From Hydrurus foetidus (lineage: Eukaryota): DNA of 64,000 bases. Each line of letters starts with the position of its first letter. The first letter of the stretch is position 1. The notes under the pieces were generated by a model that saw only the letters and a program-made list of their open reading frames with translations, was not told the origin of the DNA and ran no database searches. Below are positions 1 through 62,053 of this stretch, one piece after another. The stretch covers positions 1 to 64,000 of the forward strand of contig UYFQ01000027.1 of the NCBI GenBank assembly GCA_900617105.1, in the 5' to 3' direction. A program made the position numbers and the translations under genes.

Positions 1-95
1 TCAGAACGAGGCGAAGCTCTTGAAAAATTTTTCTGAGCAGGGGTTATCGATCTCCATTGACTTTCAGTGAGATTTACATCGATAAGTGATTAGAC

Positions 96-3000
96 ATGTC
101 ATCACCACCTAACCCAAACCCTGATCCGAATCCGGACGAAGAGGAGATTGCACGTCTGGCAGCTTTAGCCGCGCTCAACGAGTCGACTATCTCAATGTCG
201 AACTCGCTGTTCCCAGCTTTCCCCTCGACGATGCAACTCCAGGGTGAGGTGTTCGTCCTCAGGCATAACTTCATTGATGAAGCTGATGCGACTGAGTTCT
301 ACGAACAGGCTCAGAGGTACCCGTTGATGAAGCTAACCGATTGCATGCAGAAGCAGGCAATCGAGTTACTTAATTTCAGGATCATGATCGATCCTGAATT
401 TAACATCATCGATAGACGACAACGCCATGATTGGCAGACTAAATTGTCGGTACTTCAGGTAGCCAAACTGATAATAAAGTACTTCTCTCCAAATGGTTTG
501 GGAGAATGTACTCTGGCAGAGAGCTTTAGCCAAGTTCCCTTCCATTATCAGATCGCTAACCACGATCATGAGAATGCCACATTCGTACGTTACAACGAAC
601 TTGTGAGCACTTATGAGAGGTCTAAGGGACCATTATCAGAGACTCAGCATGCTGAGCTCATATTGATTTTGGAGAAGCGCCTAGCCAAGGGTAGTCAAAT
701 CCAACAGGATTACCTGAAAGCGAAAGCTGCTGACAACACTCCACCTCATACGTGGTATTCGACTATGCTACGCATTGGTCAGGTTCTTGCCAAGGCTAGG
801 GCAATGATGAACCTCATCAAAAGCTATGGCAACCCGGACACGGTGTACTCGTTTCCTGCATCAGCAGTTCCACCAGACGTTGGTAAGAGGGAGACGAGTA
901 GAGCGAGTGCTAAAGCACCCTCACCTACACCCTCCGCTTCGTCGAGATCAGTCACTGCTACTGTGCGTACCCCTAGCTCGTACGTTCCGACGCAGCACGG
1001 ACTCTCTGTCCGTGCTTCCACGGAAGTACCGCTCGTACCGATGTTTCGTCCGTGCCGGTCGTGCGGAGCTACGTCGCACAATTTGGCAGACTGCCCCATA
1101 CTGTACTACTCCGACTCCAACACGAATCACCAAGTTGAGTGGGAGAGTTCTACAGTGGGGATGGCTTGGGCCGCGGTGGGGTACTCTGAATGGCAACTCA
1201 ACCTCGTCCTTCCGGGATACGAGGAACGAGTTCAGTTCTACCCCAGAGGTTCTAAACCTTACTTGATGTGTAACGACAACAAGCGCGCCAAGAACAGCCA
1301 TGGTTCTGGAAACAACTCCAACACCTCGGATGGTTCAGATCGTTCCAACCAGGGTCAAGGAGGAAACTCCCAGAACCAATCTGGTTATGGTAACCAGGGT
1401 AACCAGGGGGGTGGTAGAGGTAAGCAAAGGGGCCATCAAAACCCCAATGCGAACCAATACCAGGGCCGTGGGTCCGGCGGTAAGGGTAAATACAACCCCC
1501 CGCAGGGACACAACCCTCCTCCCAACACTCAGCCGGGACAACACCAGGGTAAGAACCTTGCCCATGACTGTGTGGCTGCCACATTCGATGATGATGTCTT
1601 TAATCTGACTGATGATCATCTCGAAGTGCAGCCACTTGTACCTATTCGTGAAGAATTCTTACATACCCCTTCCACCCTCGCTTCTCACCACCTTAACGTT
1701 ACGGTTATTGTGCAGGATAAGGACAGGACAGGCCCAGCTAGCGAGCTGCGCGCCGCGGGAAAGGCCGTAATGGATACGGCCAATTATTCAGACAATTTTA
1801 TTTCATATGACATGATTGAAAAATTAAATGCTACTCACTTATGTTATCCTGCTCTTAAAGCCATAACTGTTTGCAGCGGTCTCGATGGCCAATGCTATCT
1901 AAATAACGAAATTTGCGATTTAAAAATCCTTTTTCATTCTTACGATGGTGAATGCCATAGCATCAGCCTACCCATGAGGGTCAATCGGAAAACCGACATC
2001 GACATTTTATTTAGCCGTGAAACGGTAAATAAGTATGATTTTTGGACGTTAACTCCGTTTGCATTCGGCATTTCTCCTGAGCTAAGTGCTGAGAATAAGA
2101 GAAAGAGCGATGCTCGCAGACGCGAATTCGAAAGAAAAGAAGCTTTGGATAAACTCGATCCGTTGTTTCAACACAAATATACGCGTCGTATGATAGCGTT
2201 GGGTACCGAACCTGATACAGCCGTAGTCGAGTCTTTAACACCTCACTACGACAAGCTGAAATATCCAGGCGGTAAACCACCCTCTAAAAAGAGAGAAACA
2301 CACGGATCTTCCGAGTATCCAAACAAGAAGAGCATATTGCATGGTCAATCTTCTTCGAAGAGCAACGTCTCTTGTGTCCATACAATGTCGACATGTAACG
2401 ATACTCAGATGGAGATCGAGGGAGTAGCTACCCAAGATCCCTGTGGTGTTGTAGGTTGTGAGCGACTGAATAGTGTCACTACTATTCTCGCAAAACGTAC
2501 GGGTGATACACCGCACCTAGGTGGCGACCAGATTCCCACCCCTACAAACACTTCTGAGGACTCTGATACCTTAGACTATGTCACTGAGCCTTTATGGCCC
2601 AGTGGTGTCGCACTCTCAGTTGACGAGATTGACGATGGCAAGATAGATACGTTTGCCCCCTTCTTGGCGGAGAAACCTAGTCAAGATGACTTGCCCAAAG
2701 GGCCAGAGGATTTCCTCAAAGAGATTACCTTTGAAGGAGATGAAAGCTTTCAAAGGAAGCTCCGAGAGCTCTGTTCTGAATATTCAGACATCTTCAGTGA
2801 TCAATTAGCTGAGAAACCAGCGTCACTTAAACCCTTTGAGATTAACATCCCACTTGAGTTGTGGGAAAAAGACGAAAACCGTACGCCGGTACGTCCCCAG
2901 TCATCAACAAAAGAGGTTGCTCTCAAAGAAAACCTTGACGAGATGCTTGCATCAGGGGTTATAGAGCGATCAGATGCCGCTTATTACAGTCATCCTGTAA

Positions 3001-3593
3001 TAGTAACTAAGTCACCCGGTAAATTTCGAACCTGCATCGATTACCGGCCACTTAATAGGTGTCTTAAGCCGGCCTCATTCCCGTTACCAAATATCAAACA
3101 CCTCTTTGAGAGGATCGGTAATAAAAAACCGGATATTTTTGGTGTGATGGATTTAACCGCTGGTTACCATCAAGCACCGTTACACCCCGCACACCGCATT
3201 TTTACGGCATTCATATGCTTTGCGGGGGTATTTCAGTTTACGAGACTGCCCTTTGGTCCGTGTCGAGCCCCCTCTTACTTTCAAGAGCAGATGGTAACGG
3301 CGGTCCTCTATGGCCTTATCTATCATTGTTGCGAGATGTATCTCGACGATTGTATAGTATATGGCAAGGGTGAAGCAGAGTTTCTTACTAACTTGAAAAA
3401 AGTTTTTGCAAGATTTAGACTTAAGGGTCTAAGACTCAAAGCTAAAAAATGCCGTTTCGGCCTTCCACGTATTGAATACGTTGGCAGAGTCGTTGACAAA
3501 GATGGTTTATCCATGTCAAAAGAGAAGATAGAAACAGTTTTAAACTTTTCTATACCTAAAAATTTAACCTTACTCAGGTCATTTTGGGTTTAG
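96..3593 (+). CDS. Gypsy Gag-Pol, N-terminal part (Gag with CCHC zinc knuckle, aspartic protease, reverse transcriptase)
   Basis: Zinc knuckle CRSCGATSHNLADC; protease-like VMDTANYSDNFIS; RT motifs FRTCIDYRPLN, DLTAGYHQ, RLPFG, YLDD, YVGRVV. The frame breaks at RSF (3582-3590). Confidence 0.93.
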   Translation: MSSPPNPNPDPNPDEEEIARLAALAALNESTISMSNSLFPAFPSTMQLQGEVFVLRHNFIDEADATEFYEQAQRYPLMKLTDCMQKQAIELLNFRIMIDPEFNIIDRRQRHDWQTKLSVLQVAKLIIKYFSPNGLGECTLAESFSQVPFHYQIANHDHENATFVRYNELVSTYERSKGPLSETQHAELILILEKRLAKGSQIQQDYLKAKAADNTPPHTWYSTMLRIGQVLAKARAMMNLIKSYGNPDTVYSFPASAVPPDVGKRETSRASAKAPSPTPSASSRSVTATVRTPSSYVPTQHGLSVRASTEVPLVPMFRPCRSCGATSHNLADCPILYYSDSNTNHQVEWESSTVGMAWAAVGYSEWQLNLVLPGYEERVQFYPRGSKPYLMCNDNKRAKNSHGSGNNSNTSDGSDRSNQGQGGNSQNQSGYGNQGNQGGGRGKQRGHQNPNANQYQGRGSGGKGKYNPPQGHNPPPNTQPGQHQGKNLAHDCVAATFDDDVFNLTDDHLEVQPLVPIREEFLHTPSTLASHHLNVTVIVQDKDRTGPASELRAAGKAVMDTANYSDNFISYDMIEKLNATHLCYPALKAITVCSGLDGQCYLNNEICDLKILFHSYDGECHSISLPMRVNRKTDIDILFSRETVNKYDFWTLTPFAFGISPELSAENKRKSDARRREFERKEALDKLDPLFQHKYTRRMIALGTEPDTAVVESLTPHYDKLKYPGGKPPSKKRETHGSSEYPNKKSILHGQSSSKSNVSCVHTMSTCNDTQMEIEGVATQDPCGVVGCERLNSVTTILAKRTGDTPHLGGDQIPTPTNTSEDSDTLDYVTEPLWPSGVALSVDEIDDGKIDTFAPFLAEKPSQDDLPKGPEDFLKEITFEGDESFQRKLRELCSEYSDIFSDQLAEKPASLKPFEINIPLELWEKDENRTPVRPQSSTKEVALKENLDEMLASGVIERSDAAYYSHPVIVTKSPGKFRTCIDYRPLNRCLKPASFPLPNIKHLFERIGNKKPDIFGVMDLTAGYHQAPLHPAHRIFTAFICFAGVFQFTRLPFGPCRAPSYFQEQMVTAVLYGLIYHCCEMYLDDCIVYGKGEAEFLTNLKKVFARFRLKGLRLKAKKCRFGLPRIEYVGRVVDKDGLSMSKEKIETVLNFSIPKNLTLLRSFWV

Positions 3594-5536
3594 CGAACTA
3601 TTTTCGACAGTTTGTACCAATGCATTCCACTTTGGTTAAGCCAATGCAGGATATGATTGATCACTCTGCTCCGAGACGTTCTGCTGTAGTTTGGACTCAA
3701 AAGAGCACCAACTCATTTGTTGACACAAAGATTGCTATATCTCGTTGTCCATTAATGTACTTCATTGATGACAATAAGTTAGACATCCGCTTGTATACAG
3801 ACGCATCCGACTTTGGTATCGGTGGAGTCTTATTCCAAGTTGTTGGTGCCATTTGGCAACCAATTGCTTTCATTAGCAAATCGTTGACACCCACACAAAT
3901 AAGGTGGTCTACGATACAAAAAGAGGCTTATGCCATCTTCTTTTGTTGTACACAACTCGATTATCTAATCAGAGATCGTACGTTCACTATCCATACGGAT
4001 CATTTGAACATAACATATATGAAACAAAATCCTACCTCAATGGTGGCGAGATGGTTCATTGCTATGCAAGAACTAGATTTTACCGTGGTATTCGTACCCG
4101 GTACTTCGAATGTTTTGGCAGACGCACTGTCAAGGCTTTGTCCTAATCTGACAGAAATTGCTCTGCCATTACGAACAGAAGAATTGGAATTACTTCCTAC
4201 TTCATCATCGTCTTTCACTGTATCAGCTCTGACGGTCATAGAACCAGCTTCAGACGATCAGTTAGAATACATTCAAATGTGCCACAATGCAATTGTCGGT
4301 CACAACGGCGTAGACCGTACCCTTACTCGGTTGTTTAGTTTACAACAAGTATGGAAACACATGAAACAACATGTACGTACGTTCATACAGAACTGTCCGT
4401 GTTGTCAAAAGTTGAGTGCAAAAGATCCTAAGATCAATGCGTCTCATTTTGCAACTTCAAATTATGCTATCTTCGATACGCTAAATGTTGACTATATTGG
4501 TCCATTTCCTGACAAAGGTTATATCCTAGTCATCATCGATACATTCACACGATGGACAGAATTGTTCTGGTGTGCAGACGCAGATGCTAAATCAGCAGCT
4601 GACTGTTTGCTTGCGCATTTTGGTCGATTTGGATCACCAAATATGATTAGATCTGATCGAGGATCACATTTCGCAAATGAATTGATCAAAGAATTCTTAG
4701 ATCTTTGTGGAACACCACATAATCTCACCCTTGCTTACTCGAAACAAGAGAATGCAATTGTTGAAAGAGTCAACAAAGAGGTGAATAGACACTTAAGAGG
4801 TTTAGTTTTTGATAAACAAACCCTTGAGGGATATGCTAAGTCAATCCCATTCGTGCAACGTATCATTAACGGTTCAGTTAATAGACGCACAGGTGTCTGT
4901 CCCGCTCATTTATTGTTCGGGAACAAACTTGATTTGAATCGTGGTATTCTCACTCCACACTTAAGTGTCGGAACACATTCAAGATCAACGTACATATCAG
5001 ATTTGATAAGTGTACAAGACAAAGTACTTGAAACTGCGGTTCAAACTTTGTTAAAAGCGGATGCTAAAAACGCCGCGTCAGCTGAATCAGCGACTGTGTT
5101 CCCCGTGGGGTCATATGTCTTATGCCGATACACTGATCGACCTCCAACTCGATTACATACTAAGTGGCATGGCCCTTACTGTATTGTCTCCTTTAAGGGG
5201 TCCGAGTACGTTCTCGCTAATCTTGTAAATCACAAGACACGAAGTGTTCACGTCAAGAATTTGAAAATATTCAATTATGACCCAGAGGTAGATATACCTG
5301 CTGACACTGCTCGTCGCGATTACATGGAGTTCGTGGTTGAGAAAGTTCTGGGTCACGCTGGTGACACCAAGAAACCGACTACAATGTCGTTCCATGTTAA
5401 ATGGCTCAACTACGATGACTCTCATAATACATGGGAGCCGTGGAAATCACTACGGCTCTGTGAAGCACTCCATGATTATTTACGGGATAACAAAATGAAA
5501 CATTTCATTCCCAGAAACATTGAGACATCAGCCTAA
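3584..5536 (+). CDS. Gypsy Pol, C-terminal part (RT thumb, RNase H, integrase, chromodomain), frameshifted relative to the upstream ORF
   Basis: GLANYFRQFV; RNase H LYTDASDFGIGGVL, TDH and LADALSR; integrase zinc finger (CHNAIVGH...CPCC) and DD35E (VDYIG, SDRG, IVERVNK); GPY motif; chromodomain FVVEKVLGH...FHVKWLNYDDSHNTWEP. Confidence 0.95.
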   Translation: MGLANYFRQFVPMHSTLVKPMQDMIDHSAPRRSAVVWTQKSTNSFVDTKIAISRCPLMYFIDDNKLDIRLYTDASDFGIGGVLFQVVGAIWQPIAFISKSLTPTQIRWSTIQKEAYAIFFCCTQLDYLIRDRTFTIHTDHLNITYMKQNPTSMVARWFIAMQELDFTVVFVPGTSNVLADALSRLCPNLTEIALPLRTEELELLPTSSSSFTVSALTVIEPASDDQLEYIQMCHNAIVGHNGVDRTLTRLFSLQQVWKHMKQHVRTFIQNCPCCQKLSAKDPKINASHFATSNYAIFDTLNVDYIGPFPDKGYILVIIDTFTRWTELFWCADADAKSAADCLLAHFGRFGSPNMIRSDRGSHFANELIKEFLDLCGTPHNLTLAYSKQENAIVERVNKEVNRHLRGLVFDKQTLEGYAKSIPFVQRIINGSVNRRTGVCPAHLLFGNKLDLNRGILTPHLSVGTHSRSTYISDLISVQDKVLETAVQTLLKADAKNAASAESATVFPVGSYVLCRYTDRPPTRLHTKWHGPYCIVSFKGSEYVLANLVNHKTRSVHVKNLKIFNYDPEVDIPADTARRDYMEFVVEKVLGHAGDTKKPTTMSFHVKWLNYDDSHNTWEPWKSLRLCEALHDYLRDNKMKHFIPRNIETSA

Positions 5537-5879: not shown

Positions 5880-6087
5880 TGTGGTCGGACCGGCTATACC
5901 GGGCCTACGGGCCGTACCGGACCTTGTCCCGATCCATCCGATCCTACCGCCTACTGTACACATACATCTCTAGCGCAGCTGCTAGCTAGCTCTAGCCTAC
6001 TCGTAGAAGTTATCCTAGCTTCTAGCTCGTAGCCTTGTAACTAATTAACACCTCTCCTCTATCGACCTACTTCCTATCTGGACTACA
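5880..6087 (+). repeat. 3' LTR of the Gypsy element (~208 bp)
   Basis: Starts TGTGGTCGGA right after the PPT and ends TCTGGACTACA (imperfect terminal inverted repeat); Copia coding sequence resumes immediately afterwards. Confidence 0.8.
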
Positions 6088-6092
6088 GCATC

Positions 6093-8639
6093 GTGATGTG
6101 CGTACTGTACGTAGTCTCACGGTTAAATTTCGAACCATACGGTGAACGAGAATGGGGTCCTAGCCCAAGAGAAGCTTTCATAGGTAGAAAGCCAGATGGT
6201 AAAAGAGACTTCAGATGTGCATTTGGAGACTATGTACAGTGCACAGTGGCCAATACAGAGTCGACTCTCAGATCTCGCACAGAAGACTGTGTAGTTATGC
6301 TGCCGCTTGGAAACCGTACGGGTACGGTGAGGATGTTGTCTTTAACTACCGGAAAGCTAGTGAACCGAGATCAATTTATAATCATGCCAATGCCTGAATC
6401 AGTTATTAAAAGATTGAATGCGCTCGCACTAGCAGATGGAAGGGTGATGGGAAAGAGTGAATTGGTGGGAACCGATAACATCAATGAAACAGTCAACGGT
6501 AAAACAGAGGGGTTACCAGAGACGATAGAAACAACCATAAATGAGGGTGTAGACCCATCGATTACACTACTGGATGCGAATTACAACCCTGAGTTGGTAT
6601 ACGAAGAAGCCGGCGACCAGATCGATGAGACTCAACTCGACGAGCCGCATGCGGAAGAGTCCGGACTCGCAGATGATATGATTCCACCACAAACAGTACG
6701 ATTCGAACCGAAGGAAGTAGCGATGGATGACTTGATGACCAGCTTCAGAAAGTTGGCAGTTGGACTACCTCACACAGTATCGGCCGAGACTGTCGATGAG
6801 CAGGGTGTACCGGAGGACTACGGCGAGAACGGTGCAATCGACATGGGAGCGACAGAGGAACCAGTTACAGTGACCTCTACACCCAACACTTACTCAGCAT
6901 ACGGACACAGGGTAGTCCCAAGAGCGGATCTGATGGATATGTTCAGAGGAGACAAACAGACCGCAGCACTACTCACTAGGAACTATGACTCAGCAGGAGG
7001 AGATTGGGGTGAATATGTGATGAACATTTCAGTAAACGAAGCACTGAGGACAAGGGGAAAGGATGCAGAGACAGTGATACAAAAGGAGTTAGGACAGATG
7101 ATCGAGAAGAAAGTCTGGACTCCCGTAGACATTCGAGGCCTGTCGCACGGAGAGAAAGCTCGCATCATACGGTCAAGTATGTTCTTGAAGGAGAAATTTT
7201 TGGCTAGTGGTGAGTTCGAAAAGTTGAAAGCGAGATTAGTTGCAGGAGGAGATCAACAGGACAAGACATTGTATGATGATTTGTCAGCTCCTACTGTTGG
7301 GACCAGCTGCGTATTCACCCTGTTGTGCATCGCAGCTCACGAAGGTCGGAAGGTCACTGTGGTAGATATTAGCGGGGCATACTTGAACGCAGACATGAAC
7401 ACTGGGCTAACAGTTCATATGCGATTAGACAAGAGCATGACAGGCATGATGGTGAAGCTGTCACCACAGTACGAGAAGTACATGGACGCCAGAGGATGTG
7501 TTGTGGTGAGGTTGGACAAAGCGCTGTACGGATGCGTGGAGTCAGCAGCACTGTGGTATGAGAACCTCAGGGAGAGCCTGAAGAAACTTGGATACACACC
7601 GAACGCTATAGACACATGCGTATTCAATAAGCGCAACGAGAACGGCGTACAATGCACTATCGCTGTGCACGTGGACGACTTAATGATTACTAGCACAGAC
7701 TCAGACATGATCGAGTCGCTCGCTGTAGGGCTGGCGAAGAGATACGGAGATATCACTCGCAAGGACGGCCCGATCGTGAACTACCTAGGAATGGTGTTCG
7801 ACCTGACTGTACGTGGAGTAGCTAAGGTGACGATGACGGGGTATGTAGATGACATGCTGAAAGAAGTGGGGACGAGCAAGGGAGCGCGTACCCCGGCGAC
7901 AGAGGGTCTCTTTGAGGTGAGACCGGATGCACTCACGGTGAGTGAGGGACTGAGGGTGATGTTTCACAGACATGTGGCTAAGATGCTATACCTGGCGAAG
8001 CGAGCCAGACCGGACTGTCTGACTGCGGTCGCATTTCTTGCCACGAGAGTGACCAAGTGTACAGTTGACGACCTAGCGAAGCTCGATCGCCTTATGAGAT
8101 ACGTATGGGCGACTCGGGAGAGAGGAATAGTGTTTACACCTGGAGCGTCAGGGATTGTTGTGAGTGTCCTTATTGATGCAGCATATGGAGTCCACGCAGA
8201 CGGGAGGTCCCATACGGGGAGCTGCATCGTAGTGGGCGATAGAGGAGCAGTTCACTGCAAATCTTCCAAGCAACAGATTGTAACGAAGTCGAGCACGGAA
8301 GCTGAGCTGGTGGCTCTGTCCGACTCCGCGAATCAGGCACTTCACGTGAGAAGCTTCATCATCGCACAAGGACACGTGTGTGGCCCTGTCATCATACACC
8401 AAGACAACATGTCCTGCATGGCGCTCATCGACCGGGGACGGTCAGGAGCAGAGCGCACGAGACACATCTCAATCAAGTATTTCTGGTTGAAAGAGAGGGT
8501 GGATATGGGTGAGGCGAAGGTGAAGCACCTCGGGACAAAGGACATGTATGCGAACATGTTGACGAAGCCACTCCAGGGAGCACAGTTCAAGACGGAGAGA
8601 AAGGGCGTCACAGGGTGGCCGGACAAAGATTTAGAATAG
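6093..8639 (+). CDS. Copia Pol fragment (integrase C-terminus, RT, RNase H); 5'-truncated by the insertion, so the GTG is not a real start
   Basis: VLYVVSRLN...SPREAF...RCAFG (end of integrase); KLKARLVAGG, VDISGAYLNA, LDKALYG, HVDDL, YLGM, RPD; RNase H IDAAY, KSSTEAELVA, QDN, RTRHI, ANMLTKPL. Confidence 0.93.
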   Translation: MMCVLYVVSRLNFEPYGEREWGPSPREAFIGRKPDGKRDFRCAFGDYVQCTVANTESTLRSRTEDCVVMLPLGNRTGTVRMLSLTTGKLVNRDQFIIMPMPESVIKRLNALALADGRVMGKSELVGTDNINETVNGKTEGLPETIETTINEGVDPSITLLDANYNPELVYEEAGDQIDETQLDEPHAEESGLADDMIPPQTVRFEPKEVAMDDLMTSFRKLAVGLPHTVSAETVDEQGVPEDYGENGAIDMGATEEPVTVTSTPNTYSAYGHRVVPRADLMDMFRGDKQTAALLTRNYDSAGGDWGEYVMNISVNEALRTRGKDAETVIQKELGQMIEKKVWTPVDIRGLSHGEKARIIRSSMFLKEKFLASGEFEKLKARLVAGGDQQDKTLYDDLSAPTVGTSCVFTLLCIAAHEGRKVTVVDISGAYLNADMNTGLTVHMRLDKSMTGMMVKLSPQYEKYMDARGCVVVRLDKALYGCVESAALWYENLRESLKKLGYTPNAIDTCVFNKRNENGVQCTIAVHVDDLMITSTDSDMIESLAVGLAKRYGDITRKDGPIVNYLGMVFDLTVRGVAKVTMTGYVDDMLKEVGTSKGARTPATEGLFEVRPDALTVSEGLRVMFHRHVAKMLYLAKRARPDCLTAVAFLATRVTKCTVDDLAKLDRLMRYVWATRERGIVFTPGASGIVVSVLIDAAYGVHADGRSHTGSCIVVGDRGAVHCKSSKQQIVTKSSTEAELVALSDSANQALHVRSFIIAQGHVCGPVIIHQDNMSCMALIDRGRSGAERTRHISIKYFWLKERVDMGEAKVKHLGTKDMYANMLTKPLQGAQFKTERKGVTGWPDKDLE

Positions 8640-9200: not shown

Positions 9201-10753
9201 ATGTCGCTTCATGACGAAGTGGCTTTTGAAGAGATTGATAGCGCGTCGCAAAAGTTTACAGCTACAGTGAGAGAAAACTGTGGGGCTTTATTAAGTCGTC
9301 AATGGCACATAGTTTTGCCGGTTGCAATGTTTGCGTACGCAATTTTCCAGTCCTCTGTTGCTTACTTCGATGTCTGCACCGGTCGCGAACCTATTGAGCC
9401 TTGGACTCAACAAGTAATTGTCGCCATCGCTGGGTGCTTCATGCTCAGTGTTGCATATCATTCCCTCATCGGAATTTATATGGGTGCATACACCAAAAAC
9501 AACAAAGAGCTATCTTATCCCCGTGCCGTTTACGCAGCTGCTGCAACTGTTTCACTTGTCGCGGGGATATCAGCGTGTATCAAAATAAACGACCGTTATC
9601 ACTCGATATGCAAAGATGCTCTTGGCATGGAAACTTTCTCGTCACAATGGCCAGAGTGGCTCGTTGATGTTCCTTTGTTAGGATACATTACTGTGGCGCT
9701 AGAAGACAAATATGAGTTGGCCAGAGAGGATATCATCCTGATTTGCATGATGTTTAGCATGATATTCTTCGGTAAGAGGCGATCAGTTTTTGATTTTTGA
9801 TCAAAGAGGGAACACGTAGAATCTGCTGCTTCAATTTGTAGGTGATAGTTGTTCTCTAATCTTTTAGAATGACGAACAAAGCCTTCACAATCGAAATGTC
9901 GAATTTGATATTCTCCCACGAAGGTTTCTTGGCAAATCTGACGACAGACAAGTTCACTGGATCTGTTTTGCTATCAATAAGCGCCTGCTGTATTATGGGT
10001 AACTTCTACGTCGCCTTCAAGTCTTCGAGAGATACACAGGCTTTGGCGATAGCTGCCGCCAAAAAAGGTAATATACATCTGCAATGAAGTGTTTGCGCAT
10101 ATTATCCAGGATGCTCCATCTTCTCAATTTTCCTATCTGTTGATTCTTCAGGGCGGAATAACAGATCTGCTGCAGCGGCTAGTGCCCAGTGGGCGTTTGA
10201 ACGAATGATGATGAAGGGGCGTTTGTCCTGGTTGTTGATTTATGTGCTGCCTCTCTTTCCGATAACATACCTGCTGGGATACGTGGGCGTGTTCGACAGA
10301 GATCAAGTCATCGCGTCTAACATGATTTGCAGTGTGTTTGCAAAGCTGGTGTTTGTGGGCATATTGTCATTGGAGTCTCTGTTCGTTCAGCTTGCTCAAC
10401 GGAACAATGACGTACGCAAGAGGGCTCTCAACAACGCCACAATTGAAGGGTTCTCATTGCTACGTGGCGGCCCATCGATGGCCAGCAAGACCGCCTATGG
10501 GACAAATCTGAACCCCAAATATGACAGCCTTAATCAAGTAAATTCTGTTGAAGATGAAGTTAATTTCAGCCTGGTAAAAGTTCAAAATGAAGCAGCCCTG
10601 GGGTATAAGAACGGGACAAAAGGGGGCAATCTCGGAGGAAAAGGAAATTTAAAGTCCGCCTCTGACGGCCCTCTGAATGGCGGCAAATCATCTGTAATCA
10701 AAGCGGAGCCAGGCAAAGGAGTGTCAACTGGAAAGCTGGCCATTAATATCTAA
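9201..10753 (+). CDS. Microbial (type-1) rhodopsin-like protein, 8 predicted TM helices, ~438 aa; exons 9201-9771, 9924-10067, 10152-10753
   Basis: Two GT-AG introns splice in phase 1 into one ORF. Helix C QWPEWLVDVPLL matches BR RYADWLFTTPLL; helix F LPLFPITYLLG matches WSAYPVVWLIG; helix G CSVFAKLVF matches LDVSAKVGF, with the Schiff-base Lys codon at 10343. There is one extra N-terminal hydrophobic helix. Confidence 0.85.
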
Positions 10754-11613: not shown

Positions 11614-36524
<24,911 letters not shown>

Positions 36525-37754
36525 ACCTGAGCCTGACAAGAACAAGAACAAGAGCAAGTGCCACTATTGCACTGCACCACGGCACGACCCATGACCATGA
36601 CCATGACCCACCATGGCATCACGTCATGTGCTGGCTGTGGCGAGCTGAGGTACTCAGTGCTGTGCTTTATATTCAAGGACATCAGTGATGCGATGGGCGG
36701 CATCCCGTCCCATCCCTCCCTCGTGTTACTCTGCCACTCTAAATAACCAACCTCATTGCTGTCGCTTCGTTTGAGTGACTCACCCGTACACCCAGACCAG
36801 CACCAGCGATCAGGAAGGGCTTCAAGTAGACAGTGCGTGATCTATGCCGACAAAGTTTCCTTCACCTCGCTGCATTACATTATATACCACACATCACTTT
36901 ACTTTTATTGGACGTTCTGTTGAATCGCTTAGAGGGGTTCTGTCAGGTGACGTACTCGCTATTCTGTACAGTATAGCTACCATACGCACGCAACAGTAAT
37001 AGACACAAAGGAAAGGAGGATCCATCCTTCGCTACAACACTACACTACACTACACTATACTACACTACAGTACAGTAAACTACACTATACTATATGATGA
37101 TTATTTAGAATGAGCGTGGCGCACTGAGTTTAGTTCACACTCATTTAGCAGAAGTCTAATCAGCACAGTTCCGTATATGCCTCAGCAAATCATAATCGCT
37201 ATTACTTTATCTTTCATTTCTTTTCTATATGATCGATGTTACATGCGATAGAATCGTACATCCAGTTCATTCGATCGACATCGAAGTACTCTACTTGACT
37301 TTATTTAACAAAAATCAACCAGTCGCAACAAGAACCCTCCTTTTTACAGACCAGCCAATTTGATCCATCGTTGATCAAGCGAAATGCGTCGTAGCTCAAT
37401 CAGTGATATTTGACGAAATACCTTTATCACTGATGGGTTTGTCATAGCAGTCTGCAATTACAGCTACGATACTGCAACGCGTCTACTACTGATACATTTA
37501 TAGTGGAACCACCACCGACGCTCAATCAATACTTCATTCCTTCAAAAGTCGAATGACAAGATGATGGAGAAATAAGAAATAAGAAATGTGAAGGAAAAGA
37601 TTTCCGGAGAACACAAGAACCGGATAGAATCTGGTCAACGTAACTTCGTAACTTTCTTCAGTTTTATATCTTTTGTCTTTTGTGGCAGTCTCCCCTCCCA
37701 GTAGGATTCTGCTCTACATCATAAATAATACGCCTTCTGTACAACGTACACGCA

Positions 37755-39749
37755 ATGGCGAGGTGCCACGCCATCAGAAAGCTGCTTTGCTGCGAATGTT
37801 ATCTTTCCCGATGCTTCATCGAGTCAGCAAGGAAATTTTATGCGGGTATATCACATCCGAGAAGTTTTTTGATTTTTAATGTGATCTGCATCATGCAGAC
37901 TGTTCCTGCGTTGTACTACTACATATCATTCTTCAAGAGTGGTTTCTACATCGTTAACTCCACCGGTATGGCACCCGTTTGGGGCTGCACTATTGGAGCC
38001 ATCGCAACAGCGATTGTGACCACCGCTCTGGTGCCAATACCACCCCAAACTATCACCGCTACTTTCTGTGCAGCGGTCATCATATGGGAATTTCTTGTTT
38101 GCGGTTCGCTATTTATAGCAGCAGTCTGTCTAGCGATTATGTCAGACTACCACGGATTTGTCTGGAGCGTAATAGGATCAATCAGCACGGGTTGCGCGGG
38201 ATGCTTTCTTCTGTGGTTGGGTCTCGAAGTAATTAAAAGACGAAAAGTTGAGAAATACGAGAATCATCTTGATAATGCTCCGTTTCGACCTCCATTTATG
38301 TCCTCTATGTCTGACAATATGAGCAGCGATGGTAGATCAAGCAAGTCTGATGTTGTCATTCAGATTGGAGAAAGAGACCGAAGCTCCTTGGAAAGAAGCT
38401 CGTTAGGAACCCCTGAGAGAAGTGAAAGAAGTAGAGAAAGAAGTAGAGAAAGGCTCTCTGAACCGTCTGATGTGCCTAAACATCACATATTTCGATCTAG
38501 TAAACTCGACTCCATACCGCAGCCCATCGGACCTAGTGATGACTTTTTCCTGGACGATATTTACAGCCAGGATAGAAAAGCTGTGAAAACCACAACCGAG
38601 TCTGAGCCAAATGCAGTACAGAGACCTTCCTGTTTTGGGGCCGTCAAGTTTTGTGTGATACAGATTTTACTCTGGGCAATATTATTTGTTTTTTCTATCA
38701 TCCCCGCAGGTTTTGGCATACAGCAGGCTATTCAACTATCAGAGCTTATAAAATACGGAATCCCAGGAACACTATACTCTATTCCTTCTGCACAGAACTC
38801 TACTATTTCTCTTAACATGCATATTTACTGCCTCGGTCCGAAGACATCTCGACCTACCTTGCTATTCGAAGCCGATAAAGGGACAAGCGGTTTTTCATTC
38901 TTCAACATGCAGAGCACTCTGTCTCCGACTTGGAGAGTGTGTACGTACGACAGGGGGGGATACGGGTGGTCCGCTCTGCCCCCATTGGGGTCGTCCACCC
39001 CCACTGCCGTCGCTTTCAGGCTACATGCATTGCTTGATTCTGCTGGTGAGGGACAGTCATCAAGTGGGATTGTTCTGATCGGTCACGGAACAGGAGGGGA
39101 ACTAGCACAGTTGTACGCACTGACCTATCCGAGCCAAGTATCCGGTCTAGCGATCTTAGACGGATATCCTAACATCGATAGATTGATGGGCCTCTCCACA
39201 AACAGCATCTATCAGTCCAACCTGAAGAAATGCGGTGATCTTCAGATATCTAGAGCACTCGAACCTGTCGCCTTAATGAGGGCTGTGACTGACGTGTTCG
39301 ATGTAAAGACCAAGAACAGAGGGGACCAGTTTGTACCCCAGTCACAATTGAATAAGTATGGTTCCACTCAGACTAATGGGAAATATTGGGCAGCGCAGTA
39401 CAGCGATCTCTGCGTCAATGCTGGTGCAGTGACTGCCCACACAGACCTGCTGAATCAAGCCGCTGAGAGACGGGTGGTATCGGCGTATTTTAACGGGAAT
39501 GCCGTGGCGTGGCCCTCCCTCCCGGTCAATCGTCCTGTGCTGGTCGTGTCTGCAGGTAGCAGCATCAGCGGCTCTGATGCTCAATCCATGACGTACTTCA
39601 GACAAGCAGCGCTCTACAACATGACCCTCTCCTCCTCCCAACAGTCCAAATGGATCGTGTGTGCCTCTTGCGACCACTCACTAGCCGTGGACCGGGACAG
39701 TACGGCTGTATCTGGCTATATTGACCAGCACTTCAGCAACTACTTCTGA
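37755..39749 (+). CDS. Intronless multi-pass membrane protein with a C-terminal alpha/beta-hydrolase fold
   Basis: About 5 hydrophobic segments, then MHIYCLG...PTLLFEA, RVCTYDRGGYGWS, IVLIGHGTGG, YPSQVSGLAILDG, PVLVVSAG and CDH. Confidence 0.85.
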   Translation: MARCHAIRKLLCCECYLSRCFIESARKFYAGISHPRSFLIFNVICIMQTVPALYYYISFFKSGFYIVNSTGMAPVWGCTIGAIATAIVTTALVPIPPQTITATFCAAVIIWEFLVCGSLFIAAVCLAIMSDYHGFVWSVIGSISTGCAGCFLLWLGLEVIKRRKVEKYENHLDNAPFRPPFMSSMSDNMSSDGRSSKSDVVIQIGERDRSSLERSSLGTPERSERSRERSRERLSEPSDVPKHHIFRSSKLDSIPQPIGPSDDFFLDDIYSQDRKAVKTTTESEPNAVQRPSCFGAVKFCVIQILLWAILFVFSIIPAGFGIQQAIQLSELIKYGIPGTLYSIPSAQNSTISLNMHIYCLGPKTSRPTLLFEADKGTSGFSFFNMQSTLSPTWRVCTYDRGGYGWSALPPLGSSTPTAVAFRLHALLDSAGEGQSSSGIVLIGHGTGGELAQLYALTYPSQVSGLAILDGYPNIDRLMGLSTNSIYQSNLKKCGDLQISRALEPVALMRAVTDVFDVKTKNRGDQFVPQSQLNKYGSTQTNGKYWAAQYSDLCVNAGAVTAHTDLLNQAAERRVVSAYFNGNAVAWPSLPVNRPVLVVSAGSSISGSDAQSMTYFRQAALYNMTLSSSQQSKWIVCASCDHSLAVDRDSTAVSGYIDQHFSNYF

Positions 39750-43900: not shown

Positions 43901-46900
43901 GGAGCGAAGTTTATTCAGAAGATTGCGTTGCTGAAGTCCCAGGTGTGCTGGGCGATAAGTAGAGTAGCTATCTTTGCATCCTATCTCACCCTATCTCATC
44001 TCATCATGTTATATCTTATCCTATCTTTGCATCCTATCTTACCCTATCTCATCTCATCATATCTTATTTTATCTCATCTCATCATGTTATACCTTACCCT
44101 ATCTCATCTCATCATCTTATATCTTACCCTATCTCATCATATCTTACCCTATCTCATCTCATCCTATCTTACCCTATCTCATCTCATCTCATCATATCTT
44201 ATCCTATCTTTGCATCCTATCTTACCCTATCTCATCTCATCTCATCTCATCCTATCTTACCCTATCTCATCTCATCTCATCATATCTTATCCTATCTTTG
44301 CATCCTATCTTACCCTATCTCATCTCATCTCATCCTATCTTACCCTATCTCATCTCATCCTATCTTACCCTATCTCATCTCATCTCATCATATCTTATCC
44401 TATCTTTGCATCCTGTCTTACCCTATCTCATCTCATCCTATCTTACCCTATCTCATCTCATCTCATCTCATCATATCTTATCCTATCTTTGCATCCTATC
44501 TTACCCTATCTCATCTCATCTCATCATATCTTACCCTATCTCATCTCATCATGTTATATCTTACCCTCTCCCTCACTATTCTATCTCATCCGACTGACAC
44601 ATCATAACAATGTGAGTCCAATAGCAGTAGCCCGCCTACTGCACCTGATGCAACACCCCTAAACCCAATCTACCTCCACCTCGTAACCTCACCCTAACTC
44701 TCACTTCTCAATCGATGAAACTGTGCTCATACTGACTTCAGTGTCCGAGTTCAATCAGTATTGTCCATCTAATAGTTTTTTCGTACCTTTCTTCTTCGTC
44801 CTCACTCACACACTCTGTCAAATACACTATATGAGCATCAGTGCATACCATATAAATCCACTCTGACTCTATCCTGCTCCACTCCCTACCCTATCATCAG
44901 GTGGCGACTAGCAAGGCTAGTGAAGAAACCTTGTCAGCAGAGCGGAATTCTTTGGTCCAGGATCTGTCGGAGGCACAATCTCAGCTGCTGGAGAAGAACA
45001 ATGAGATTGTCGAGTATAGCGCAGCTGCGACACAGCTCGAGCAGTTGAAGAGGGAGTTGCAGAGAGGTGCAGATGACATGGCTGTGAGGGCTACTGAGCT
45101 ATCCGATGCGAGGAGTGAGATCTCATTGCTGAGTGCTGCTCGACTAGAACTGCAAGATGTGATAGATAAATTGCAATCCGATGTAGCAGCAAAAGAGGAT
45201 GAGCTGAACGCAGTTGTGAAGAGCCATGATTTGCAACTCACGGAGTTGGAGTTGAGCGTGTCACAGGCGAGTGCAGAGATGGAAGCTGCTCAGAAGAGAA
45301 TGGCAGACGTGCAGAAAGATCTCGAACTCTCTGTCTCCAATGCAAAGGCATCTGATGACATCACCATTGATCTGAGGATGCAGCTAGAGGAGAAGGTCAA
45401 AAAGGTAGAGCTGTTGCGAGTGCACGTCACACATCTTGAAGAACAGGTGCAGGAGGCCCAGACAGACAAGGAGAGTGCAGCAGCTACGATGGATGAGAGG
45501 CAGCAGGACGATGAGGTGTCAAAGCAAATTGCCGATCAATTCAAAGAGTACTCAGAGCGTGCTGCCGTTGAGCTTAGTGAGTTACGCGTGCAGCTGAGCG
45601 AGTCTGTGGATGCGCTGTGTTTGAAAGAGAGCCTGCTCGAGACTTTGACGCTTCAGTTGAAGGAGAGCAGAGAGGCGCAGGACGGCATCGAGAAGAAGAG
45701 TGCCGAGACTGCAGCTCTAGTGGAAGAGATGAAGAGCAAAGTGCAGGAGACGCAGGCAGCGTACGAGGAGTTGAAGAGCGCGATGGAAGTGGCTGATGCA
45801 AGTCATAGAGAGGCAGTGCTGGTATTGGAGGAGGCGGCTGGTCAAAGTCGCACCCAGTCTATGATGTACACCTGGGAGATGGCGAGCAAAGTGCATGAGA
45901 CGCAGGCAGCGTACGAGGAGTTGAAGAGCGCGATGGAAGTGGCTGATGCAAGTCATAGAGAGGCAGTGCTGGTATTGGAGGAGGCGAGGAGCGCGAGTGA
46001 GGAGAGGGCGAGACTAGCAGCAGAGGAGAGTGTGAGCGCGGTGCAGGTGCAGGTGCAGGTGCGAGAGGAGGCTGCGGCTATGAGTGCGAGGCTAGCGGAG
46101 CTCGAGCGATCAATGGGTGAGTCGCAGGCAGAAGTGGTTGCTCTGAAGGCTGAAAAGGAAGGTCATGACGAGGAGAAGAACAAGATGATAGAGAAGATGA
46201 CCAAGATGCTGGGGAAACTCAAAGAGACGAAGGTGGAGGCAGCGAGTGCGACTGCGGAACTGGTGTCGATGAGGGAGGAGGTAGAGCGGGTGCGCGGAGA
46301 GGAGCAGCGGTTGGCGGTTGGTGTCTGAGGTGGCTGGTCTGCAGGGAGAATGGATCGAGCAGAGCTGTGTCGGCCGCTGAGAGTGCAGGTGAGGAGAAGA
46401 GAGCGAGAGAAGTCGAGGCAGAGAAGGAGAAGGAGAGAGAAAGACAGAGGGCAGAAGACACGGATGTAGCGGAGCGACGAAGTGCCGAGGCTGCAGCTCT
46501 AGTGGAAGAGATGAAGAGCAAAGTGCAGGAGACGCAGGCAGCGTACGAGGAGTTGAAGAGCGCGATGGAAGTGGCAAGAGGCAGCAGGAGTGAGAGATGG
46601 CTGATGCAGGTGCCGAGGAGTGCGAGATGGAGGCTGCAGGGCAGGTGAGAGAACAGAGGCTAGCAGGTGCTGGAGCGGAAAACAGGTCGAAAGGATGCAG
46701 CGCAAAGTGCAAAAGCTCTGAAGGCTGAAAAGGAAGGTCATGACGAGGAGAAGAACAAGATGATAGAGAAGATGACCAAGATGCTGGGGAAGCTCAAAGA
46801 GACGAAGGTGGAGGCAGCGAGTGCGACTGCGGAACTGGTGTCGATGAGGGAGGAGGTAGAGCGGGTGCGCGGAGAGGAGCAGCGGTTGGTGTCTGAGGTG

Positions 46901-49900
46901 GCTGGTCTGCAGGACAGCATACAGTCAGCACGTCAAGAAGAAGAGTCGTCAGAAGAAAGAAACAAAGGAAAGAGAAAGGAAAAAGGAAGACAGAACGAAA
47001 AACGGATGCTCAGGCTGGTCTCGAATAAGAAGAGAAAGTCAGCCAACGAGAAAGCGATGGAAGTCGCATCAAAAAACAGATGCAAAAGATGGAGAGGGCG
47101 AAGCAAAGTGCGGAGACAACAAGAAGAATGAGCGCGGTGCAGGTGCAGGTGCAGGTGCGAGAGGAGGCTGCGCGATGAGTGCGAGGCTAGCGGAGCTCGA
47201 GCGATCAATGGGTGAGTCGCAGGCAGAAGTGGTTGCTCTGAAGGCTGAAAAGGAAGGTCATGACGAGGAGAAGAACAAGATGATAGAGAAGATGACCAAG
47301 ATGCTGGGGAAGCTCAAAGAGACGAAGGTGGAGGCAGCGAGTGCGACTGCGGAACTGGTGTCGATGAGGGAGGAGGTAGAGCGGGTGCGCGGAGAGGAGC
47401 AGCGGTTGGTGTCTGAGGTGGCTGGTCTGCAGGAGCACGTACGTACGGCTGAGTCAGCTGCGTCGAGCAGAGCTGTGTCGGCCGCTGAGAGTGCAGGTGA
47501 GGAGAAGAGAGCGAGAGAAGTCGAGGCAGAGAAGGAGAGGCGAAGGGTGGAGGAGCGAGAAAGCTGCGCTGAGCAAGAAGCGGTGCGAATTGAAGGTCTG
47601 AGGTGCCAGCTAAAGGAGCTCCAACAAGTTCTCAGTGAGAAGGACAGTAGACTGGTTGTTCTTGATCAGACCGTTGAGAACAACGCCGCCTTGATATCTG
47701 CTAGGACAGAAGAGCTGACGGACATGAAGAAGCATTTGCACTCTTTGAAAGAAGCCATGGAGCTCGCTGTCGAGAAGGCAAAGAGAGCGGAAGAGCAAAC
47801 AGCTGTCGCAAGACAGGATCTAAGTGCACTCAGCACTCAGTACATCCGGTCACAGGAAGACAGAACAGAAGCACGGCTATCGGCATCGGAGCACATAGCA
47901 TCTTCCGAGAAGCATCAGGAAGAGTTGAGGGATGCCTTGCTGGCTCTTGAGGGGAGAGACGCGCAGCTGTCCAGCTATGCGGATCATGTCGACATGGTTG
48001 AGAAGAAGCTGACAGAGGCGGAGCAGGCTGCTGCTTGTCTGCAATCTGACTTACAGGATGCAGTCAGGGCACTCACACAGGTGAGACTAAGCACTCCGCA
48101 TCATGAACTGTATGCAAGCATTTCGACTGTTTTTTTATGGTGTGTTGGAACGAACATGCACCCTTCAGCACCCTTTGGCACAATCACATCTATGCATCAT
48201 CACCACTGTCTTCTCACTCGTCACGCTCATAGGCGAAGGCAGCCGAGGCGATATTAGGGGCGGCTTGGAGGGCGAAGAGCGCCTATGTTCCTTCAAGATT
48301 CGAAGTGCTGCTGCGCTGCAGTGACGGAGAGAAGACTTGGTGTCTCATCAGGTAAGACTTTTTCCCCCTTACATTATGGTAGATCTAGAATATCTCTAGT
48401 CTTGGAAAGAGTGCGTGACCTTGTGTGTGTGCTTTGGATGCCTTTGATTGGAATCTTCCTCTTTCATCAATGCAATCACTTGTTACATCTCACATAATCT
48501 TCACACCACTCACATCATCCATGTTCCATGTAGTCGCGAGAAGAGTGAGGAGGAGCGAAAGGCAGACACTCTATCCTCCGAAGACAGAACAGAGAGGGTT
48601 CCGCAGAACACTCCTCCTGCTCCCAGTGCTGCACTGAGTGATGGCAACAAAGAGGTGACAACTAAAGGAAAGAAGAAGAAGAACAAGCTGAGTTCTCGGG
48701 ATGTTCCTGCGGTGTCAGTTGAGAGTGGAAAAGGTGTAGTTGGAGGAGCCGAGATTGTGGATCGTGTTGATTCCGTCCTTGCTGCTGATGACGTCAGTGG
48801 CTCACAGTCTCTGGTAGGAGGTAATGTGGTGGAGTCAGTGTCTGTGTTGCATAGTGCAGTGGAAGACACTGAGAGGGACACAGATTGGTCCAACCCAGCT
48901 ACCCTCTCTATGGTGGAGTGGCGGCTAGACAGCGAAGTGATGCAGTGGTGTAAGTCAGCCCCTTCGTCCGGTCCAAGCACACCTACACGTACCCAAATGA
49001 GAGAGAAAAAGTCCCCACTGGCAGATCCATTCTCCATAGGTGCATTACCGTCCGGAAATGCAACACGCCGTATTCTATCCTATCACATTTTTTTTCTCGC
49101 TTGTGATAAAAGCTGTTTATCACTGGCATTGCACTGTATGTCTCTCTCAAGATTTTTAAAAGTGACACTAGTAATGATATGGCATGTACAATAAATCTCC
49201 CCTCTCTTCTCTCATCTCTCTTCTCTTCTCCCCTCTCATTCTCTTCATTTCTGTCCTCCGTTCTGTTCTGTTCTCCTCTCCTCTCTCCCCTCCTTTCCTC
49301 TCTCTCTTCTCTTCTTCTTCTCTTCTCTTCTCTTCTCTTCTCTTCTCTTCTCTTCTCTTCTCTTCTCTAGACGGCAAAGAGCACGAGATGCCCTCGACAG
49401 TGCAAGAAGAGATGAGCGCAGAGTTCGCCCGTCAGAGCGCCTCTATGAATGGCGTAATAGAGCAGTTGAGGCTAGAGAAAGACTCAAGCCAACAAGCATT
49501 TGATAAGTACAGGTGAGGGAGTAAGGGAGAGAGGGAGGGAGTGGTGAGTAAGGGAGTGAGCTGGGGGTGAATTGGCGAGTGGGCTGACAAATACAGTCAG
49601 TCAGTCAGTCAGTCAGTCAGTCAATCTGTCTGTCAGTCAGTCAATCTGACAGTCAGTCAGTCAGTCAGTCAGTCAATCTGTCAGTCAGTCAGTCACCTAG
49701 TCTGTCAATCAATAATTATGCAATTCCTCTCAGCATCTCCTACTCCAGCTCCTTCGTGAACAACTCACATTGAAAACCGCGCAAAATATCTATTATGCCC
49801 TGAATTCTTTACCCCGAGACAAACATCTTTCTCGAAACGTTTCTCACAATTTTCTTCATGGACTCTTATCAACATCTAATATCTGATTATTTTTTGACAG

Positions 49901-51963: not shown

Positions 51964-52684
51964 AGCTCTGTCCTTGGAAGAGGAGGATGTCTGTACTGCA
52001 CTGCACGGTAGTATGCTGTGCCATGTGGAATAGTATTGGATCTTGTCTCAATTCCCTAGTCGGCGCATATTTAGTCTGACATACGTTGCATTGAGAAGTG
52101 CGGTAGCTGCCATGTACTGGATTGTACAGGAGAGGTCTCGAGTCCGAGTCTGAGCCCCACACAGCGCGGTGTCTCTCCAGATCAGAACGGAAGGGACTCT
52201 GGACCGTGATATAGTCTGACGTCACTGGGATAGTCCACCTTCCGTGAAGAATAGAGTAGGGAAGAGATAATAGGAGATCTGAATTGTGCAGCTATGAACT
52301 GGTCCGGCTGATCATGTGATCAGAATTTTTAAAATGTATGTGAACCGTACAGAGTCACATAGTGCATGACCGCGCCACAAATGCTTTTTTATCGTGCCGA
52401 TTAGATGCAGGACACCACCTCACCGTACATACGTGGTAGATGCATTACATGAGCTGATTCCTCTGAGACTACATAGTTAGAGGATTACTAGAAAGCTTGT
52501 CGATGATCTTTCGTTGATTCATATTTCATGCGATAGAGTGCACACTAACAAATTATTTCCTGCCTAAATAATACGATATATTTTATAATGTACTTGTTGC
52601 TTCAATGTAATAATTCTACAAAGTGGAATAATAAATCCTACCAGGAGAATAAGCTGCAAAGTACTCTTCTCAAAACTATCAGAC

Positions 52685-61603: not shown

Positions 61604-62053
61604 CTTTTCTTACGGAGCCTGGCAGCGTCTACTGCGCTGCCTGGCGCAGCCAACAATTGGCGTTAGCTGATGATGATAGCGTGGTGAGATTCCAGACAGA
61701 TTGGACATATGTATGCAGTATGCGTGCGAAGTGAGCTGTGAGCTGCATGCTGCAAGCTGCATGACTGAAAGTCTCCTGCCATTTCTGTTGCATGATTCGA
61801 CACCGATTTCTGTCATATTTTTCGGAACACATACGGAATATTCTAAAAGTTGTACGCAAAAGCGAATTTTAGTCGAAGAAAGCAAAAGAAAACTCTTCAC
61901 GTCTCACGACATGAAGACAAAGCGAAAAGCGACAAACTCATCACTCATCGGTCACAGTGCTGGACGGATATTTATTCAGCGATGAACAGTTGGGAGAGCA
62001 GTAACGAGTTCTGTAGCGACGAAGCAATCATTTGAACCGCTCATGATTTTATT

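Follow-up and report, generated by a model that had tools for sequence, protein, structure and literature searches.

A candidate truncated histidine-kinase rhodopsin with a depleted retinal pocket in Hydrurus foetidus

Gene structure, expression, and genomic setting

The window, a 64,000-nucleotide stretch of Hydrurus foetidus DNA (contig UYFQ01000027.1, positions 1 to 64,000), carries a rhodopsin gene on the + strand, flanked by the remnant of a copia-type retroelement and by a kinesin gene. The gene has three exons (CDS 9201-9771, 9924-10067, and 10152-10753) and encodes 438 aa, with the following features.

9201..9771, + strand: exon 1 CDS, residues 1-190/191, with the cytoplasmic N-terminus, TM0, and TM1-TM4 (helices from relatives' models)
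9303..9371, + strand: predicted extra helix TM0, approximately residues 35-57 (hydropathy; relative's model compared with TM0 of Rh-PDE and bestrhodopsin)
9375..9377, + strand: Cys59 in the TM0-TM1 loop, candidate disulfide partner (conservation)
9582..9584, + strand: Lys128 in helix B, at the M60 position, specific to the Asp-89 subclade
9609..9611, + strand: Cys137 in the B-C loop hairpin, candidate disulfide partner (conservation)
9645..9689, + strand: pocket face of helix C, with Q149 (R82), E152 (D85), W153 (W86), D156 (T89), P158 (P91), and I163 (D96) (alignments)
9772..9923, + strand: intron 1, GT..AG, 152 nt (spanning reads and two metatranscriptome contigs)
9924..10067, + strand: exon 2, with the end of TM4 and TM5 with its cytoplasmic extension (spliced reads, translation)
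10068..10151, + strand: intron 2, GT..AG, 84 nt (spanning reads)
10152..10753, + strand: exon 3 CDS, with TM6, TM7, the extended helix, tail, and stop
10247..10261, + strand: pocket face of helix F, with L271 (W182 lost), P272, F274 (Y185), and P275 (P186)
10331..10345, + strand: helix G, with S299 (D212 lost) and K303 (retinal lysine position)
10379..10456, + strand: extension of TM7 into the cytoplasm, which lines up with where the kinase H-box helix begins in fused relatives but lacks the His

Enumeration of GT..AG pairs left many open models, from which RNA reads picked the final one: intron 9772-9923 is spanned by 27 and 29 stranded poly(A) reads, and intron 10068-10151 by 40 and 16 (two runs, one sample). 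Intron 1 is also present in contigs of two freshwater metatranscriptomes. The first mates of the poly(A) reads are minus strand, which fits a plus-strand mRNA and a usual stranded library. The rhodopsin gene is expressed and spliced. Related transcripts carry 21 coding differences (one three-read variant and three non-coding variants excluded), 15 synonymous and six non-synonymous, with the pocket residues unaffected; 15 silent changes out of 21, against 23% synonymous sites, give p 3e-6, uncorrected for transition bias. A second allele at position 9244, which changes residue 15, occurs in approximately half to two thirds of the poly(A)-sample reads, and there is also a second allele at 10811, within the 3' UTR.

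Upstream of the gene, positions 90-5536 of the window hold a gypsy-type retroelement that has a chromodomain and is split over two frames, and positions 6045-8639 a copia-type reverse transcriptase frame that ends approximately 500 bases before the rhodopsin start codon. Downstream, a 14-kb strand-biased array of 15-base units (16028-30432), with an 18-copy higher-order 492-base repeat, apparently lies within a long gene that begins with the kinesin exons (12402-14286). The regions at 37725-39749, 44856-52000, 58385-61609, and 62036-63643 are ordinary (membrane-anchored alpha/beta hydrolase, long coiled-coil protein, BMT5-like methyltransferase, VPS9 protein).

Predicted fold and membrane topology

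Structure was predicted for P0001, a full-length relative (63% identical over 281 positions, with Ala at position 89) that stands in for the Hydrurus protein. The model (pLDDT 72, 80-90 in the core) has eight membrane helices and a B-C hairpin, and its TM7 extends approximately 25 residues further. An earlier model, of the relative P0002 from five alignment rows, was poor (pLDDT 49), and its fold search still returned rhodopsins; our conclusions use the P0001 model. Among 48,161 chains, the best fold match is Salpingoeca rosetta Rh-PDE (7d7q; Z 18.3, rmsd 3.7, 267 residues, TM0 included), with bestrhodopsin 7pl9 (Z 16.4 over 265 residues), Acetabularia rhodopsin (Z 16.4), and heliorhodopsin (Z 13.3 over 214 residues) also recovered; the top 36 rows are all microbial rhodopsins (Z 11.8-18.3), and the top three Foldseek rows are all Rh-PDE. 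NeoR is not among the fold matches listed, where a missing row excludes nothing. The extra N-terminal helix follows from the alignment of model residues 35..338 with Rh-PDE 46..320, whose TM0 spans 50-73. A homodimer prediction for P0001 residues 25-350, made without an alignment, scored 0.00 and speaks neither for nor against a dimer.

P0001 and P0002 pass the PF01036 cut-off, at low scores (30-35 bits), and the three Hydrurus exon pieces searched singly gave no Pfam rhodopsin match. From the modeled fold, the PF01036 matches of its relatives, and K303, we assign the Hydrurus protein to the type-1 microbial rhodopsins, with eight predicted membrane helices. Membership of the heliorhodopsins was rejected on the eight helices, the better match to Rh-PDE (Z 18.3 versus 13.3), and the Pfam family, PF01036.

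In TM0-bearing rhodopsins both termini are cytoplasmic (PMC8815786), so that C59 and C137 would both be extracellular, as the preliminary description had placed them. C59 is conserved in 60 of 60 rows and C137 in 118 of the 124 rows with a residue, and a C59-C137 disulfide can reasonably be expected. A disulfide is not mentioned in the available text of the Rh-PDE paper (PMC7644710).

The retinal pocket

Five substitutions in bacteriorhodopsin numbering (R82->Q, D85->E, T89->D, D96->I, and D212->S), together with a kept Lys, had been read from the DNA sequence alone, and the splicing and register evidence confirms them. The residue numbers given at that stage are all exact in the RNA-confirmed frame, with codons starting at 9645 (Q149), 9654 (E152), 9666 (D156), 9687 (I163), 10331 (S299), and 10343 (K303), as well as 9375 (C59) and 9609 (C137). 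The bacteriorhodopsin numbers are those that we take to apply to these pocket residues, checked only against the text of the papers cited. The helix-C register comes from HMMER alignments of the family to 6kfq, CryoR1/2, and Arch3, with weak E-values (0.006-10). For helix G, the register of Ser299 and Lys303 is taken from the S-x-x-x-K spacing, from PF01036 matches of P0001 and P0002 that reach profile position 217-218 of 224, from Lys in 97 of 101 gap-free helix-G rows of the family alignment, and from the structural ranges of the model and Rh-PDE (35..338 versus 46..320), not from residue-level superposition.

Alignments point to three further pocket losses beyond the earlier five: W182 (L271), Y185 (F274), and Y57 (A125). 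W265 was rejected as the W182 equivalent, since it leaves no Pro at 186, and the helix break in the relative's model lies just before P275, the P186 equivalent. Four pocket residues that are common in rhodopsins (R82, Y57, W182, and D212) are missing together.

In place of the outward proton pump set (R82, D85, T89, an acidic residue at 96, and D212; DTD/DTE motifs as defined in PMC13739731) the Hydrurus protein has Q, E, D, I, and S. Sodium pump membership was rejected, as E, D, and I stand at the positions of N85/D89/Q96 and Asp is the sole match. The proposal that the protein is unlikely to be a pump is thus upheld by the absence of Arg82, of a donor at 96, and of Asp212. It is extremely unlikely that the altered pocket instead forms a light-gated passive proton or ion conductance: helix B lacks a glutamate series, Ile at 96 would close the cytoplasmic side like Trp175 in Rh-PDE, enzyme rhodopsins are described as lacking transport (PMC7644710, PMC12558739), and the ancestry would be a kinase fusion (see below), although the R83Q, D211N, and R83Q-W182F variants of the pump CsR do show a passive proton leak (PMC4657025). 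The nearest Atlas clusters by features are opsin- or channelrhodopsin-named (0.90-0.91, with channelrhodopsin-named clusters at 0.90), which is a lead only.

A large family with much the same pocket

Word-index searches returned 27 close clusters, one of which contains a transcript of the chrysophyte Hydrurales sp. CCMP1899, and a profile search recovered 463 relatives (50%-cluster representatives) at E<=1e-3, 240 of them at 1e-10. A Pfam scan of 68 long relatives, chosen for their length, found HisKA, HATPase_c, or receiver matches in 46. Residues were counted in an alignment of the query with 154 proteins among the top relatives, with gapped or broken rows dropped per helix. Position 82 is Gln in 95 of 137 rows and Arg in three; position 85 is Glu in 129 and Asp in four (133/137 together); position 86 is Trp in 136 of 137; and position 89 varies (Ser 33, Cys 31, Thr 28, Ala 16, Leu 13, Asp 6, and Glu 4, of 137). 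Trp182 is found in 0 of 117 rows and Tyr57 in one row among the helix-C rows. Position 212 is Ser in 53, Gly in 24, Asn in 18, and Asp in four of 101 rows, whereas Lys216 is kept in 97 of 101, and 51 of the 97 Lys-bearing rows have an H-box motif.

By this alignment, Gln82, Glu85, a hydrophobic residue at 96, and a non-acidic residue at 212 are traits of a large histidine-kinase rhodopsin clade. As four of the five substitutions are family-wide, only Asp89 would be special to the offshoot that contains this gene, and the pocket is mostly not peculiar to this one gene, a point beyond the reach of the preliminary description. Nearly every characterized cluster conserves Arg 3.42 and 6.50, and an uncharacterized cluster 5 has no conserved residue at 7.46 (PMC13739731); cluster 5 could be this clade.

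The same counts bear on whether the clade still makes a working photopigment. The near-complete loss of Trp182, Asp212 (4/101), Arg82 (3/137), and Tyr57, the low Pfam scores (30-35 bits), and degenerate H-boxes in several relatives would be expected if it did not, and if the membrane domain served as some other sensor, a scaffold, or a dominant-negative partner of kinase paralogues. We consider this quite unlikely, given that the Lys (97/101), Glu/Asp85 (133/137), and Trp86 (136/137) are retained among proteins only approximately 30% identical, which makes a pigment plausible; moreover, a NeoR-like rhodopsin that lacks all three pocket aromatics is discussed as still absorbing (PMC10622942). 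Heliorhodopsins, with E3.45 and S7.46 (PMC13739731), and the green-sensitive HKR2, which has no counterion carboxylates (PMC8815786), likewise make a pigment plausible. No report of retinal binding by a clade member was found in the open-access literature searched.

Among 29 close sequences, position 89 is Asp in 14, Ala in 12, Val in one, Thr in one, and an artefact in one (Gly in P0022 reflects intron read-through). D156 is thus not fixed in close kin (Ala in P0001, Val in P0004); Ala at 85 in P0093 is a single sequence and possibly an error. In a 25-row tree, every Asp89 row falls in one 16-row clade (96/93), which also has the helix-B Lys128; because these rows share ancestry, the co-occurrence of Asp89 and Lys128 counts as one event, not as a correlation. 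The cytoplasmic residues E168, D169, K170, D177, W252, R256, and K260 are invariant in 16 of 16 rows.

Several more distant family members have features of their own. P0111, P0121, P0123, and P0124 carry Glu at 89, so that a second carboxylate on helix C may have originated on more than one occasion. P0177 and P0190 have Asn for the retinal Lys together with Gln for Glu85, which suggests a retinal-free branch. In two proteins the rhodopsin is preceded by an RGS domain and followed by a degenerate H-box (P0137, RGS 56-203 and rhodopsin 281-537; P0140, RGS 13-162 and rhodopsin 239-491), an arrangement resembling the RGS-LOV helmchromes of stramenopiles. P0131, P0135, P0156, P0125, P0229, P0239, and others have lost the phospho-acceptor His and kept a kinase-like tail, as pseudokinase rhodopsins; these include the nearest long relatives of this gene. 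Pattern searches of JGI metagenome contigs gave 44 matches and two loci, both loci rejected as chance matches in a bacterial signal-peptidase-like gene, and none of 47 matches in viral contigs was related to the family.

Probable loss of the kinase

The stop at 10753 lies 135 residues past the Lys, inside a read-covered exon, with zero further joints up to 11000. No piece of a kinase or receiver domain was found within the 64-kb window and no Pfam enzyme domain was matched in exon 3, and HisKA, HATPase, and receiver domains are absent from the chain. The tails of the query, P0001, and P0002 lack an H-box motif (phospho-acceptor His after the TM7 extension). The transcript of the CCMP1899 relative is annotated as complete at 442 aa; many other close relatives are exon fragments that do not cover the C-terminus.

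In a 44-row tree (unrooted, with no outgroup), the query belongs to a 4-row clade (99/98) nested in a 16-row clade (99/95) that includes the kinase-bearing P0109, P0112, P0115, and P0122. A second kinase-less group is placed elsewhere in this tree, a 107-row FastTree agrees, and a single clade of all eight kinase-less rows is rejected (p-AU 1.5e-5, for a group named after seeing the tree). Descent from histidine-kinase rhodopsins (HKRs) is very probable on these relationships. The kinase-fused state is probably ancestral, because raphidophyte HKRs share Gln82-Glu85 and a like H-box at near-equal distance from the Lys (a comparison made by eye from PMC8017926 Dataset S3). When compared by eye with the nearest fused rows, the tail of the Hydrurus protein also aligns with their H-box helix, with the His replaced; as 288 of 1000 shuffles score as high for the query (767 for P0001 and 24 for P0002), which is not significant for the query, a relic of the H-box helix in the TM7 extension is suggestive only. 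Our best reading of the sequences is that this gene encodes a truncated HKR, in a kinase-less offshoot that added Asp89 and a helix-B Lys.

Proposed function

For the function of the protein, we see about an even chance that it is a non-pumping visible-light sensor, a truncated HKR with its counterions on helix C. The kinase would have been lost by truncation just past the TM7 extension, and retinal would be bound on K303, with E152 and the added D156 holding the Schiff base, one of the two probably in protonated form, and K128 perhaps supplying the charge of the lost Arg82. The placement of both candidate counterions on helix C, proposed earlier, is supported by E152 and D156 with Ser at 212. 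Pumping would not be expected of a protein that has no Arg82, no donor at 96, no Asp212, and no release group. The pigment would be visible, blue-green more likely than far-red, and its photocycle would be slow or bistable because Trp182 and the proton donor are missing; pigment color is not readable from sequence. The signal would exit via the conserved cytoplasmic face (E-D-K of the C-D loop, W-R-K of the TM6 extension, and the long TM7 helix) and reach a second protein, in the simplest case a kinase-bearing paralogue, much as NeoR modulates its cyclase partner.

The preliminary description had proposed a bistable or spectrally unusual photoreceptor and noted a likeness to NeoR. The sensory role is likely; the likeness to NeoR is not supported. 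In NeoR, E136, D140, and E262 form a counterion triad with the helix-G Glu, E262, as principal counterion; the E262Q mutant either forms no pigment or has a deprotonated one (PMC12875766, PMC7655827). The Hydrurus protein has the Glu85 and Asp89 of this triad (E152 and D156 match E136 and D140) but Ser299 in place of E262, so that it lacks the carboxylate at 212 and was rejected as a NeoR. Moreover, absorption stays at 695 nm in natural NeoRs whose D140 position is occupied by Ser (PMC10622942), and Asp at this position is therefore not the far-red determinant. A far-red, bistable pigment of NeoR or bestrhodopsin type arising from the E152/D156 pair is accordingly very unlikely, the more so as the Pro186 position is Thr in NeoR and Pro here, Asp89 has been lost again in close relatives, and the descent would be from HKRs; what speaks for it, beyond the carboxylate pair, is the eight-helix fold shared with bestrhodopsin and a weak counterion field that could shift absorption to the red.

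A somewhat less unlikely alternative keeps the same ancestry and sensory role, with a deprotonated dark Schiff base that absorbs in the UV/violet, such that position 89 (Asp versus Ala, Ser, Thr, or Cys) would act as a natural UV-visible switch. An apusomonad rhodopsin with Thr at 212 absorbs UV, and T220E restores a blue band (bioRxiv 2025.04.02.646541); the NeoR E262Q phenotype is of the same kind, R82Q reportedly brings the pK of D85 up to approximately 7 (PMC4657025), Glu at 85 is protonated in Rh-PDE with Asp212 as sole counterion (PMC7644710), and HKR1 has a UV state (PMC8815786). However, the Hydrurus protein has two helix-C carboxylates, the counterion of sodium pumps is the Asp at 3.49, and heliorhodopsins retain just one Glu on helix C together with Ser at 7.46 (PMC13739731). 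A UV pigment is thus unlikely, and we retain the visible-light sensor as the preferred reading.

A broader scenario, to which we would assign only a low probability, is that golden algae possess an expanded, uncharacterized family of eight-helix kinase rhodopsins that function without Arg82, Tyr57, Trp182, and Asp212 and in which the kinase was lost repeatedly. The present offshoot would have rebuilt its counterions on helices B and C (E152, D156, and K128) and would act as a separate, differently colored or bistable modulator of kinase-bearing paralogues, a NeoR-like division of labor in a two-component system with photochemistry unlike that of any measured rhodopsin.

The family supplies natural rhodopsins by the hundreds in which the retinal Lys is retained while the Arg, Trp, and helix-G Asp, conserved in almost every characterized cluster (PMC13739731), are missing, and thus offers a direct test of which pocket residues a pigment needs. 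Asp89 in the Hydrurus protein and Ala89 in the 63%-identical protein of a cultured strain form a natural pair with which the disputed role of the carboxylate in color tuning can be tested, and a small kinase-less member would be the easiest to express. These proteins point to an unexplored route of light signaling in freshwater golden algae.

Comparison with known rhodopsins

The closest structure is Rh-PDE of S. rosetta (PDB 7CJ3, 7D7Q), with eight helices including TM0, a cytoplasmic continuation of TM7, Glu at 85, and no proton donor at 96. It differs in that Asp292 (D212) is the sole counterion, Arg82 and Trp264 (W182) are kept, and the rhodopsin is fused to a PDE, at approximately 12% identity. 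Heliorhodopsins share E3.45 with S7.46 (E152 and S299; PMC13739731), but have an inverted seven-helix topology, a kept Arg82, and a lower fold match.

Chlamydomonas HKR1 and HKR2 (2c-Cyclop) belong to the eight-helix kinase-rhodopsin class, likened here by description, not sequence. HKR1 is a bistable UV/blue pigment and HKR2 absorbs green light without counterion carboxylates; HKRs characterized by 2022 numbered three, and those described in this source are all green-algal (PMC8815786). Both are full phosphorelay-cyclase fusions of green algae, whereas the Hydrurus protein lacks a kinase. Ochrophyte and other algal HKRs of the 'enzyme rhodopsin' clade A.5 (Heterosigma, Chattonella) share Gln82, Glu85, a hydrophobic residue at 96, and the Lys, and their H-box motif and spacing resemble those of fused family members; the raphidophyte HKRs keep Asp212, Trp182, and the kinase, while the Hydrurus protein lacks all three and has Asp89. 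Clade A.5 also holds chlorarachniophyte HKRs (Coesel et al. 2021, PMC8017926). Two kinase-less relatives occur in clade A.5 of Dataset S3A of that paper, from CCMP2298 and an entry labeled Gymnodinium catenatum, both with Gln82, Glu85, Ser212, and the Lys, and with Gln in one and Thr in the other at position 89. The motif QWPEW is absent from Dataset S3, and neither a comment on the pocket of these two relatives nor a characterized clade A.5 member was found in the available text of PMC8017926; likewise, no description of the present clade was found in the open-access literature searched.

NeoR (RgNeoR) and the bestrhodopsins share Glu85, Asp89, and the eight-helix class with the Hydrurus protein, but their counterion triad includes a carboxylate on helix G, where the latter has Ser, and they are fused to a cyclase or bestrophin. 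The Hydrurus protein is less a mimic of NeoR than a representative of an uncharacterized family of kinase rhodopsins whose pocket is stripped, and within this family it is probably a truncated member that has regained a carboxylate.
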